DNA from: a virus
Strand: one strand, 5' to 3'
Length of the DNA: 47,183 bases
IMG/VR virus record: IMGVR_UViG_3300046786_001104
Under the pieces are notes generated by a model that saw only the letters and a program-made list of their open reading frames with translations, did no database searches and was not told where the DNA came from. Below, piece by piece: positions 28,821 to 31,388 of this stretch. The first letter of the stretch is position 1. Every line of letters starts with the position of its first letter. Position numbers and translations under genes: made by a program.

Positions 28821-30386
28821 ATGAAAAGAATTAATATAACTCCCAACGTAAATTCGTTAATCGGTTTATCTCACACTGCTCATACTCCTTGTTCCGCTTT
28901 AGCAGATATAATTGACAACTCTATTGATGCTCAAGCATCCGAAGTTTGTTTAGATATATTAACATCTAAATCTGTTGAATCTCACATAATAATTGCAGAC
29001 AACGGTACCGGAATGGATGAAACTACGTTAGGAAAGTGTTTTTCGTTGGGAACTCACGAAGACAAAGAATCGTCGCTTGGACGTTTTGGCATGGGTCAAA
29101 AAACTTCTTGTATGACCCTTGGTGAAGAATATATTGTTTTGACTAGAACTGTTGGCGGTCTTTTGATTAAAGGAACATTCAATCCATCTAAAATTATGGA
29201 ATCTGGGGAATGGGTTACAGAAGTAGGAGAAACAAATGAACTAATTGATATTGAGTTTTTTGAAAAATGGGTAAAATCTCCAAGTGGTACCGTCATTTTA
29301 ATAAAGAATCTAAGATCTGTTACTAAAAAAGAATCTACTAAGTTTACTAAGTTTTTGGGAGAAACTTTTAGAAACTTCTTGAAATGGGCTCCGGCCGCAA
29401 CTGATATCGAAAGTGTAGTTGAAGATTCTTCACTTTCGAAACTAAAAATAACAGTAAATAATGCTATGGTTTATGCATACGATCCATTGGAAAGACAATG
29501 GGATTCAACTAAAGTTGATATTTGTGAAACTGTAGAAACGCCGAATGGGTCGTTTAAAGTTACAGTTGTTGTTTTAGATTTAGAAGACGTTCGTTACAAA
29601 AAACGTCCTAACCACAAAGATCAAGGAGTTTACGTTGTTAGAGAGAATAGACAAATCATGGCACATGATAATGATGTTTTTGAAGAAATTATTGGTGCTA
29701 GACATTCGAGTACTAATATGCTTAGAACAGAAATTTGTTATTCTAAAAACATGGATGGTTCATTCAAAGTAAACCACGAAAAGAACAAAATAACTGGAGT
29801 TGATGGGAAAGTTATGGAGTTATTAGAAAAACTGATTAAAAATAGATATGCTCAACTTAGAAAAGAAAGAGCAGCAGAATATGCTAAAAACAAACAAAAA
29901 TCTCCAGAAATTTCTGATATTCACAATAAAGTTGTTGACTTGTTAGAGTCTAAAAAGAATGTTTTAAATCTCCCAAATCAAACAAAAATTGCTAGAAAAA
30001 AGGGTGGAAAAACTGGAACTGTTCATCCAAGAAATACTCCTATTCATAGAACGGGAGATAAAGTCATAGATACTAAAGTTGGAAAGTTTTCTTTTGAACT
30101 TGCAGATTTAAAATCTACGGGTGCGGTGTTTGAATTCGAATTCGAAGCAAACAGTCTCAAAGTTATATGGAATACATCACATCCATTTGTTCAAAAATAT
30201 CTAAACGTTGTTGGAGAAACGGAAGGCGGTACTGATAGTCAAATTAAATGTTTAGATTTAATGGCGATGGCAATAACAAGTTATTGGTCAACTGTGTGTC
30301 AAGAAGATGATAACGATGAAATTTGGAATAAAAGAGATAAATTTATTACTATTATTTCGGATAACCTCAATCAATTGTCAATATAA
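28821..30386 (+). CDS. GHKL-superfamily ATPase (MORC/HSP90-like; restriction-system-type)
   Basis: N-box-like ALADIIDNSIDAQASEV and G1-box IADNGTGMD, typical of histidine-kinase-like ATPases. Confidence 0.6.
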   Translation: MKRINITPNVNSLIGLSHTAHTPCSALADIIDNSIDAQASEVCLDILTSKSVESHIIIADNGTGMDETTLGKCFSLGTHEDKESSLGRFGMGQKTSCMTLGEEYIVLTRTVGGLLIKGTFNPSKIMESGEWVTEVGETNELIDIEFFEKWVKSPSGTVILIKNLRSVTKKESTKFTKFLGETFRNFLKWAPAATDIESVVEDSSLSKLKITVNNAMVYAYDPLERQWDSTKVDICETVETPNGSFKVTVVVLDLEDVRYKKRPNHKDQGVYVVRENRQIMAHDNDVFEEIIGARHSSTNMLRTEICYSKNMDGSFKVNHEKNKITGVDGKVMELLEKLIKNRYAQLRKERAAEYAKNKQKSPEISDIHNKVVDLLESKKNVLNLPNQTKIARKKGGKTGTVHPRNTPIHRTGDKVIDTKVGKFSFELADLKSTGAVFEFEFEANSLKVIWNTSHPFVQKYLNVVGETEGGTDSQIKCLDLMAMAITSYWSTVCQEDDNDEIWNKRDKFITIISDNLNQLSI

Positions 30387-30402
30387 GTTTTCAATATAAA
30401 CA

Positions 30403-30448
30403 AATAAACACCGATGACAATGTAAAAAGTTGTCATCGGTGTTTATTT
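30403..30448 (+). terminator. terminator hairpin
   Basis: aaacaccgatgacaa-tgtaaaaag-ttgtcatcggtgttt perfect 15-bp stem. Confidence 0.5.
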
Positions 30449-30464
30449 AACATAAACTTTTAAC

Positions 30465-31388
30465 ATGGTAAAACCCGCCGGCAATCAACAAGAATACAAA
30501 CAACTTTTGCCATTTCGGTCGGATAAATCTGTAATTGACCAATTTGGATTCAAACCATTTTCTATATTCAAACCCACTAAAGAATCAAAAGCCGAATGGG
30601 AATCAATCGCTTATTTCTATGATGATGAAGTTGATGAAAGAAAAGGATATGGCGTTAGAAATAAAGAGGGTATTGCTAAAATGTCCGAGTTTCACGCGGG
30701 GCTTGCTGAAAATATCATTAAATATTGGTCATTAAAAGGAGCAAAGGTAGTAGACCCTTTTGCTGGCAGAGTTACAAGAGCCGTTGTAACTACTTCTCTT
30801 AATAGAGAATACTTTGGATATGAAATTACTCCAAACACATATAACCGTGCTTTAAGACATTTTCAGAGTTTAAATAACCAAGGAAAACTGACACGTTCAC
30901 CAACACTGTATCTGGGAGACGGAACTAAACTGGAAAAAACTCCTGATAATTTTGCTGACTTAGTATTTACATGTCCACCCTATTTTAATATAGAAAAGTA
31001 TGAAAGCGTTGAAGGACAGTTGTCTGATATAGATGACTATGATAAGTTTATGGAATTGATTGACAGAACAGCAGTCAACTGTTTTAGAGTTTTGAAGCCT
31101 GGAACATTCTGTATATGGGTTGTTGCAGATTTTAGAAAAGACTGTGAGTTGTTGCCATTCCACGCAGATACAATGAGAAGTTTTGTTAAAGCTGGTTTTT
31201 CTAATCACGATTTGATTGTTATAGAAAATATAACACCGTTTTCGGCAATGCAATTGGAAAAAGCAGCAGCAAAACGATATACTAGCAAAATTCACGAATA
31301 CGTGTTAGTTTTTAGAAAAGAAGGCGAATATAAAGTTCCTGACTATTGCTCTGTTCCAACCGACAAAGAAAATCTGTTTTTTGATTAG
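30465..31388 (+). CDS. DNA methyltransferase (N6-adenine/N4-cytosine amino-MTase, motif I before motif IV)
   Basis: Motif I VVDPFAGRVTRA, motif IV FTCPPYFN, and FCIWVVADF. Confidence 0.65.
   Translation: MVKPAGNQQEYKQLLPFRSDKSVIDQFGFKPFSIFKPTKESKAEWESIAYFYDDEVDERKGYGVRNKEGIAKMSEFHAGLAENIIKYWSLKGAKVVDPFAGRVTRAVVTTSLNREYFGYEITPNTYNRALRHFQSLNNQGKLTRSPTLYLGDGTKLEKTPDNFADLVFTCPPYFNIEKYESVEGQLSDIDDYDKFMELIDRTAVNCFRVLKPGTFCIWVVADFRKDCELLPFHADTMRSFVKAGFSNHDLIVIENITPFSAMQLEKAAAKRYTSKIHEYVLVFRKEGEYKVPDYCSVPTDKENLFFD

Follow-up and report, generated by a model that had tools for sequence, protein, structure and literature searches.

The DNA considered here is a whole viral metagenome contig of 47,183 bp (IMG/VR record IMGVR_UViG_3300046786_001104), termed the window below, and the locus at 28821-31388 raises the question of why a virus carries a MORC ATPase and whether this ATPase acts together with the DNA methyltransferase (MTase) encoded immediately after it. 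The original prediction described the two genes as a MORC-like GHKL ATPase and an amino-MTase, a candidate defence or anti-defence module of restriction-modification type. Both open reading frames (ORFs) are present as given, with the ATPase (28821-30386) directly upstream of the MTase (30465-31388). The reading favoured here, to which we assign a probability of about 0.5, is that the locus holds a nuclease-less MORC and an amino-MTase, accessory genes of a large phage that are functionally linked as a pair. The new element is a phage-borne MORC without the helicase and nuclease and repeatedly paired with amino-MTases, the MORC family itself being already known. The ATPase gene has the following features.

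28821-30386, + strand: MORC-family ATPase of 521 amino acids, defined by the ORF, Pfam and a structural model
28902-29297, + strand: GHKL ATP-binding motifs I-IV, identified from invariant columns and alignment to MORC4 and MORC3
29625-29657, + strand: MORC-specific S5 motif GhXhhpXXRhl, reading G269-VYVVREN-R277-QI
30060-30383, + strand: conserved C-terminal domain with a WNxSHPF signature, found also in cellular MORCs
Residues ~1-185: GHKL domain
Residues ~205-325: S5 transducer domain
Residues 329-377: long helices
Residues 390-414: basic disordered linker
Residues 414-521: beta/helical domain

The ATPase is a true prokaryotic MORC. It matches the Pfam family HATPase_c_3 with E=6.2e-20 (72 bits against a cut-off of 25), and all four GHKL motifs are clearly defined, with motif I reading ADIIDNSID (containing N33), motif II DNGTGM at residues 60-65 (nucleotides 28998-29015), which is the G1 box named in the original prediction, motif III LGRFGMGQK at residues 86-94 and motif IV SGT at residues 155-157. 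No substitution of D29, N33, D60, G62, G64, G87, G90, G92, G156 or T157 is seen among 50 homologues or within the phage clade. Lys-321 of the transducer domain, which probably touches ATP, is likewise invariant in the broad family and in the phage clade (35-46% identity), and the invariance of this lysine and of the GHKL motifs argues for an active enzyme under purifying selection. The S5 motif follows a family consensus of GFYVYRENRLI in which G269, R274 and R277 are invariant among the 50 homologues, and it departs from its definition at one position, where polar Q278 takes the place of a hydrophobic residue. The presence of GhXhhpXXRhl in the S5 domain separates MORC from paraMORC1-5, MutL, Hsp90 and the topoisomerases (Iyer, Abhiman & Aravind 2008, PMC2292703).

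Comparison with solved structures leads to the same assignment. A single-sequence search places MORC4, MORC3 and MORC2 first (E=8e-7 to 1e-4) with MutL at E ~0.07, and the 50-sequence family profile gives MORC2/4/3 at 1e-14 to 2e-12 compared with 3e-8 for Hsp90, 3e-8 for SMCHD1 and 7e-7 for MutL. The AlphaFold2 model of the ATPase (mean predicted local distance difference test score, pLDDT, 82; predicted template modelling score, pTM, 0.71) was searched with Foldseek, and the top 18 PDB matches are all MORC2/3/4 (E=3e-17 to 1e-14 over 390-490 aligned columns), with Hsp90 and SMCHD1 ranked behind them. The MORC-type assignment of the original prediction is thus borne out by the S5 signature and by sequence and fold, and MORC stands well ahead of the ordinary HSP90, MutL or topoisomerase domains that had been named as grounds for rejecting it. 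A MutL, Hsp90 or topoisomerase identity is ruled out, with scores 6-8 orders of magnitude below those of MORC and the MORC-specific motif present. MzaB, the ATPase of the MZA anti-phage system (PADLOC PDLC02204, NCBIfam NF041932), is also ruled out with a score of 60.7 bits against a cut-off of 850. The literature searched held nothing mechanistic on bacterial or phage MORC defence or on Mza/paraMORC proteins.

A second phage-encoded GHKL ATPase that has to be considered is T4 rIIA, which is noted in the literature on jumbo phages and is implicated in phage-host or phage-phage conflict (PMC7824862), and the window ATPase might be a divergent rIIA-type protein, of the class that acts against prophage-mediated exclusion, and have nothing to do with methylation. 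The folds are broadly similar, rIIA carries an N-terminal GHKL domain and is widespread in large phages (PMC7824862), and many rIIA models match the predicted structure of the ATPase with E ~1e-10. The E-values of the MORC matches are better by about seven orders of magnitude, however, the MORC S5 signature is present in the window protein and absent from rIIA, and hhalign against T4 rIIA reaches a probability of 31% over only 93 columns of the GHKL core, so that the similarity is one of superfamily level. The ATPase has no PHROGs match, is 521 rather than ~725 amino acids long and has no rIIB-like partner in sight; orthology with T4 rIIA is ruled out, and the wider rIIA-type explanation is highly improbable.

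Differences occur between the phage protein and eukaryotic MORC2/3/4, its best solved matches by sequence and fold, with which it shares 12-17% identity. The phage protein is without the CW zinc finger and the coiled-coil insertions, has an aspartate in place of the glutamate at the catalytic base and ends in a different C-terminal domain. MORCs dimerise through their N-terminal region in an ATP-dependent manner and clamp or compact DNA. Because all of the ATP-binding motifs are intact, the phage MORC is expected, by analogy with other MORCs, to share this mechanism and to be an ATP-driven dimerising clamp.

The second gene of the pair encodes the MTase.

30465-31388, + strand: amino-MTase of the N6_N4 superfamily, 307 amino acids, defined by Pfam, PHROGs, a PDB profile and a 27-sequence alignment
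30753-30779, + strand: MTase motif I variant DPFAGRVTR, residues 97-105 (canonical DPFxGSGTT)
30969-30983, + strand: MTase motif IV variant T-C-P-P-Y, residues 169-173

The MTase matches Pfam PF01555 (N6_N4_Mtase) in two stretches (E=3.8e-21, 76.5 bits against a cut-off of 26.7), phrog_12517 (E=5e-49) and many PADLOC models of Type II MTases. The DPF...CPPY pattern from which the original prediction had called an amino-MTase is present as DPFAGRVTR and TCPPY, and the profile search that it proposed places both proteins above the cut-offs of HATPase_c_3 and N6_N4_Mtase, respectively. The polypeptide comprises a family-specific N-terminal region (residues 1-70), motifs X-I (~73-140) and motifs IV-VIII (~147-300). 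When the family profile is compared with the PDB, Thermus TTHA0409 (2zie) is matched in two swapped pieces, with MTase residues 147-300 aligning to 33-200 of the target and residues 73-132 aligning to 220-279. The linear order of the β-class (IV-VIII, target-recognition domain, X-I) is not followed, since motif I (97-105) precedes motif IV (169-173), and as judged from these alignments the MTase is circularly permuted with respect to the β-class enzymes. The permutation is not unique to this protein, as the same I-before-IV order is found in phrog_498, in some of the PADLOC Type II MTase models and in the MTase of a bacterial locus discussed below (L247).

The catalytic and S-adenosylmethionine (AdoMet)-binding halves are homologous to those of TTHA0409, M.PvuII, M.MboIIA and CcrM, and the PPY core of motif IV and the YE..GQL segment following it in TTHA0409 are conserved in the phage MTase. 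The differences from these β-class enzymes are the swapped halves, the cysteine that begins motif IV, the sequence FAGRV in place of FxGxG in motif I and the additional 70 residues at the N terminus. In the alignment of 27 MTase sequences the invariant positions of motif I are D97, P98, G101, R102, T104 and R105, giving a family motif of DPFAGRxTR; the second glycine of the AdoMet-binding FxGxG is replaced in F-A-G-R-V, and G-R-x-T-R is invariant in the family. In motif IV, C170, P171, P172 and Y173 are invariant in the same 27 sequences, and the position of the cysteine is held by Asp/Asn in N6-adenine enzymes and by Ser in the N4-cytosine class. This cysteine is probably close to isosteric with the serine of the N4-cytosine enzymes, and no precedent for "CPPY" in conjunction with a methyltransferase was found in the literature searched. 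Methylation of DNA at N6-adenine or N4-cytosine is a predicted class only, and the target base is not callable from the sequence.

The MTase family is abundant in large aquatic phages, with 494 clusters at E<=1e-3, the top 120 of which are at least 51% identical to the window MTase. It extends to gp294 of Bacillus phage G (34% identity), which keeps both the DPFAGRxTR-type and the TCPPY motifs. The closest relatives of the window MTase (72% identity; L240-L243) lie downstream of unrelated proteins of ~735 and 425 amino acids that have a weak ResIII match only, and the phages that carry these MTases have nothing else in common with the window. In one of them (L240) two Mom-like (PF25680) DNA-modification genes, at 2012-2770 and 7529-8329, flank the MTase, and the surroundings so read as a putative DNA-modification island.

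Evidence that the MORC and the MTase belong together comes from viral relatives, which were found by alignment-based scans, single-sequence pattern scans of viral contigs having yielded nothing useful. The phage MORC clade is very rare, as the clade profile gives more than 680 bits with six proteins only and at most 254 bits with any other. No further member was obtained from the profile search or among the matches listed in a metagenome scan, which did not include the window contig itself, and tblastn with the ATPase returned just three weak matches, all to unannotated gut phage contigs. Identity to any cellular MORC found is at most 30%. All four contigs that carry a MORC of at least 40% identity (the window, L001, L238 and L239) have an N6_N4 MTase immediately downstream. 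In L239 this MTase is a different enzyme with the canonical β order and a TSPPY motif, giving a partial match of 27% identity only. A third MTase, also with TSPPY and 23% identical to that of L239, is located immediately upstream of the MORC in a 548-kb phage (L169; MORC 32% identical). An amino-MTase therefore flanks the phage-clade MORC in five of nine contigs, with three unrelated MTases and both orientations represented. Of 151 cellular or metagenomic loci from other MORC clades, one has an amino-MTase next to the MORC.

Genes resembling N6_N4 MTases make up 1.1-2.4% of ORFs in the viral loci examined. With the 2.4% rate, the computed probability that 3 or more of ~7 lineages have an adjacent MTase is ~0.003, and it falls to ~3e-4, by our own arithmetic, if the rate is 1.1%; this support is taken as moderate because the lineages are few and partly non-independent. 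The MTase neighbour is commoner than expected by chance and has been swapped for unrelated MTases, for which reason we infer, with moderate support, that the two genes act jointly. Such non-orthologous displacement is characteristic of functionally coupled genes.

Two members of the MORC clade have further features. L001, the closest relative, encodes two tandem MORC paralogues of 496 and 541 amino acids (199-3563) with intact GHKL motifs in both, the first having a divergent C-terminal region without the basic linker, and the two may form a heterodimer. In a 304-kb phage (L170; 6308-6679 and 8739-9935) an IS605 OrfB/TnpB-like (Cas12f-like TNB) transposase gene is found immediately downstream of the MORC with a short ORF on the other side, which hints that this MORC lies in a recently mobile segment.

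A number of observations weigh against a functional link. The phage-clade MORCs of L002/L003, L170, L171 and L172 have no adjacent MTase, and the lineages number only ~7, with the window, L001, L238 and L239 sharing ancestry and so being partly non-independent. The MTase does not need a MORC, as the 72%-identity MTases are without one, and a MORC is missing from all 80 IMG/VR loci of the MTase family inspected (46-62% identity, ~8 kb around). The strong terminator-like hairpin between the two genes could make them independent transcription units. Within the genes at 25567-34309 no helicase or nuclease domain is found besides a homing HNH inside a split intein, and a DNA-reader domain that would sense a methyl mark is detected neither in the MORC nor in the genes beside it. 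At the catalytic general-base position the MORC has Asp-29 where other GHKL proteins have Glu, and this aspartate is present in every family member.

These points bear most directly on the alternative that the genes are independent neighbours, an orphan anti-restriction or epigenetic methylase beside a self-contained MORC "moron", brought together by shared ancestry and an accessory-gene hot-spot. The ATPase gene is enclosed by terminator-like hairpins. The genes recurring around the 80 MORC-less MTases resemble DNA polymerase B, a DnaB-type helicase, RecA/UvsX, RNase H/FEN, ribonucleotide reductase and dUTPase (assigned by inspecting representative sequences, with no profile search), a setting of replication and nucleotide metabolism, and the 72%-identity MTases stand beside other genes. 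MORCs without an MTase occur in the phage contigs listed above and as solo genes in the cellular loci L004, L249 and L253. The region is moreover a mosaic of auxiliary genes, into which a vault-like gene has been inserted relative to L238. Shared ancestry alone is nevertheless hard to reconcile with three unrelated amino-MTases in both orientations, with the enrichment over background (P ~0.003 or lower) and with a colinear permuted MTase next to a MORC in a bacterial mobile element. Independence of the two genes is on balance a real possibility, if a doubtful one.

The transcription signals around the pair consist of the following elements.

28622-28653, + strand: intrinsic-terminator-like hairpin that ends the upstream vault-like gene and forms the 5' limit of the ATPase unit
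30402-30448, + strand: 20-bp perfect hairpin inside the 78-nucleotide intergenic gap (ATPase stop at 30386, MTase start at 30465)
31392-31420, + strand: promoter-like TTGACA-17-TAGAGT with an upstream TG, located after the MTase

The original prediction placed the pair between terminators at 28622 and 30403. The first of these is real, with a 13-bp stem containing 7 G-C pairs followed by a T-run (-26 kcal/mol, z = -4.2), and an Rfam scan of the region returned nothing but a sub-threshold match on it. The hairpin at 30403 is real too, but it is situated between the genes and bounds the ATPase alone. It folds with -28.6 kcal/mol (z = -8.3), a value that no shuffled sequence attains, and its A-rich 5' arm and T-rich 3' arm make it terminator- or attenuator-like. 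In L001, L238 and L239 a hairpin is found at the corresponding place (z = -6.6, -7.6 and -5.5), and in three of the four contigs it ends 13-24 nucleotides before the MTase ATG, which leaves little room for a conventional, independent promoter downstream of it. A promoter-like element, TTGTCA-17-TAAACT (30430-30458), is located in the descending arm of the window hairpin, and its equivalent in L238 is TTGTCA-17-TAATAT; the two elements end 6 nucleotides before the MTase ATG in the window and 6-7 nucleotides before it in the two contigs taken together. The restricted space suggests either attenuated read-through from the MORC gene or a promoter embedded in the hairpin arm. The element at 31392-31420, whose hexamer pair is found in identical form 3' of the MTase in L238, probably serves the next gene as its promoter and would delimit the pair on the 3' side. 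The search for terminator-like sites gave none 3' of the MTase, and alignment upstream of the MORC genes gave a short similarity between the window and L238 only, with nothing convincing as a conserved promoter.

The cellular relatives show what the phage locus is lacking. An association of MORCs with restriction-modification is documented, and a superfamily 2 (SF2) helicase and/or a nuclease is present in ~70% of prokaryotic MORC neighbourhoods, a feature that is typical and not strictly defining (PMC2292703). The cellular relatives of the phage MORC sit in nuclease/helicase operons, and several of the closest (L004, L249 and L253) are solo MORCs. In locus P0009 a MORC is found with a MutH-like protein and a Dam-type MTase. 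In L247, L248 and L090, which represent a bacterial mobile element, a permuted N6_N4 MTase is followed by a MORC and then by a DUF8370/DUF8371 protein. The L247-type MORC is among the nearest cellular relatives (28% identity to the phage MORC), and its MTase is colinear with the window MTase (E=6e-16) with HPPY at motif IV (L247 ~4070-4090). The DUF8370/8371 protein begins 16 bp after the MORC, has a PD-(D/E)xK-like signature in its C terminus and may be an unrecognised restriction nuclease. The same element carries at 993-12242 a complete DpnII-type system (D12 MTase, N6_N4 MTase and DpnII), GmrSD and a Fic protein, and it is a dense defence island.

The phage locus resembles this cassette in having a MORC flanked by an N6_N4 MTase with the permuted I-before-IV order and a non-canonical motif IV. 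The gene order is reversed, however, being MTase-MORC in the cassette and MORC-MTase in the phage, the third, PD-(D/E)xK-like gene has no counterpart in the window, and the cassette is placed in a defence island with DpnII and GmrSD. In comparison with the prokaryotic MORCs of restriction-modification-like operons (PMC2292703) the phage copy has the four GHKL motifs, the S5 transducer and the MORC-specific motif of the family and is without the SF2 helicase and nuclease neighbourhood; its neighbour is an amino (N6_N4) MTase whereas theirs is usually a C5 methylase, and it is phage-borne, rare and part of a deeply separated clade. The nearest Helicase_C gene in the contig is at 4440-6092. By sequence match a modification MTase is present at the locus and a cognate restriction endonuclease is not. 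With the usual MORC partners absent near the phage MORC, no DUF8370/8371 homologue in the window or the phage loci, and close cellular relatives that are solitary, the locus as judged from its sequence is not a restriction-modification system in the defined sense. The restriction-modification-like partnership put forward in the original prediction therefore holds in part. The published association (PMC2292703), the cellular relatives and the recurrence with three unrelated MTases in the phage clade speak for it, and the lack of a nuclease or SF2 helicase, the 0/80 count for the MTase family and the 1/151 count for the wider MORCs show that the label overstates the relationship.

A complete restriction-like or exclusion system would require that the nuclease has escaped recognition, either in the MORC C-terminal domain or in a gene elsewhere in the phage genome, with the MTase protecting self DNA and the restriction logic directed at competing phages or the chromosome of the host. 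Close cellular relatives do combine an MTase, a MORC and a nuclease-like gene, MORCs are linked to nucleases in the literature (PMC2292703), and the C-terminal domain is conserved, with an invariant Asn (N451) and a near-invariant His (H454 and P455 are found in at least 90% of sequences). This domain nonetheless contains no HExxH, PD-(D/E)xK, HNH or GIY-YIG motif and no recognisable nuclease fold, a fold search gives a marginal zincin-like match only, and it is also part of cellular MORCs that have a separate HNH gene. No nuclease domain is detected in the pair by Pfam, PADLOC or NCBIfam, the DUF8370/8371 protein is missing, and the nearby HNH belongs to a split-intein homing element. An intact system of this type is very unlikely.

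The nuclease/helicase operons of the cellular relatives, which the phage copy is without, could also be read as pointing to an anti-defence island in which the phage MORC mimics and poisons host MORC systems as a decoy. GHKL ATPases work as ATP-dependent dimers, and L001 has two tandem MORC paralogues. The variable identity and orientation of the MTase neighbour and the separate transcription signals fit a loose co-location. Against this, heterodimerisation is doubtful for a protein at most 30% identical to any cellular MORC found, and the ATP-binding residues are fully conserved, which would be needless for a passive decoy; we regard the decoy as unlikely.

Within the favoured reading of a linked, nuclease-less MORC-MTase pair the specific mechanism is far less secure than the linkage in general, and the support for it is weak. 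The MTase would methylate the phage's own DNA, providing both protection and a self-mark. The first residue of motif IV is Cys in the phage family and His in L247, which are both permuted, and Ser in the two canonical-order partners, with Asp/Asn in none of them, and the Ser/Cys at this position in all three partner MTases hints at an N4-cytosine product. The MORC would use ATP to clamp or compact DNA according to the methyl mark, acting on unmethylated competitor or host DNA, which would be left uncut unless a nuclease encoded at another site takes part. Expression of the MORC and the MTase would be set at different levels by the conserved intergenic hairpin. Taken together these steps describe a nuclease-free epigenetic exclusion module in which the MTase marks phage DNA and the MORC clamp silences unmethylated competitor or host DNA, a scheme that is speculative and rather unlikely to hold as a whole. 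In a sub-variant of it the invariant Cys-Pro-Pro-Tyr may denote a mark other than ordinary N6-methyladenine or N4-methylcytosine.

The contig surrounding the pair has a G+C content of ~36% and no near-identical DNA or close relative among deposited phages. It is a mosaic of auxiliary genes around the MORC-MTase pair, of a composition typical for the accessory regions of large phages, with the following features in addition to those given above.

15194-18879, - strand: cluster of six tRNA genes (Leu-TAA twice, Leu-CAA, Ile-TAT, Gly-TCC and Gly-GCC)
20359-21870: auxiliary gene for a DUF2828/DUF7788 protein
26097-28604: vault-like (major-vault-protein-like) gene, 835 amino acids, Pfam MVP_shoulder E=9e-22 and Vault_3 E=3e-12
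31456-33810: radical-SAM/SPASM-like gene 3' of the MTase, a "fractured gene"
41972-44852: gene pair encoding an AAA ATPase and a DUF2201 putative metallopeptidase
Elsewhere in the contig: auxiliary genes for GDP-mannose dehydratase and epimerase, an IMPDH/GMP-reductase-like protein, a phosphoribosyltransferase, a histidine phosphatase, ClpP and an NMNAT-like protein

The vault-like protein has no match in PHROGs or NCBIfam. The related contig L238 is without the vault-like gene and has a different one directly before the MORC, so that the vault-like gene is an insertion in the window and is ruled out as part of the module. On the other side of the pair, the radical-SAM gene is divided into an N-terminal fragment (31456-31965), consisting of a 76-residue N-extein ending in ...CPMTCAF and a 93-residue N-intein, and a C-terminal fragment (32794-33810), consisting of a 35-residue C-intein ending in VLVHN and the C-extein. 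A free-standing HNH ORF in another frame (~32012-32797) is placed between them. The +1 Cys of the C-extein is the third Cys of the CX3CX2C iron-sulfur motif, and the intact orthologue of L001 reads CSQSCPFC|YKNN. The arrangement resembles a naturally split intein accompanied by a homing endonuclease, with a radical-SAM enzyme as the host protein in this case, and fractured genes of this type have been described (Dassa et al. 2009, PMC2677866). A conserved modification pair of the MTase and the radical-SAM enzyme is ruled out, the latter being beside the MTase in L001 only; in the 80 IMG/VR loci of the MTase family neither the radical-SAM gene nor the vault-like gene is found within ~8 kb.

A family of small proteins that start with MKIR(N/S/T)GF(V/I)SNSSSSSF and have no Pfam match is present in several copies in the contig (25567-26061 and ~33770-34309), with probable further copies at 23073-23657 and 23845-24159. 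In L169 six tandem paralogues of this family (2618-5218) lie a short way upstream of the MTase and MORC genes.

In animals and plants MORC ATPases have a major part in silencing transposons and viruses, and to our knowledge their prokaryotic ancestors are known from gene-neighbourhood predictions only. With one MORC and one MTase, the locus at 28821-31388 offers a minimal setting for what a prokaryotic MORC does with a methylation mark. The product of the MTase bears on how the methylomes of environmental phages are read, as the enzyme's family is very abundant in large aquatic phages and is represented also in Bacillus phage G. If the two genes are unlinked, the locus would still yield a useful annotation of a true phage MORC and of a distinct family of permuted MTases. 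If the exclusion mechanism is true, the pair would be a prokaryotic-virus counterpart of the MORC silencing of animals and plants, and methylation-gated MORC action would predate eukaryotes.

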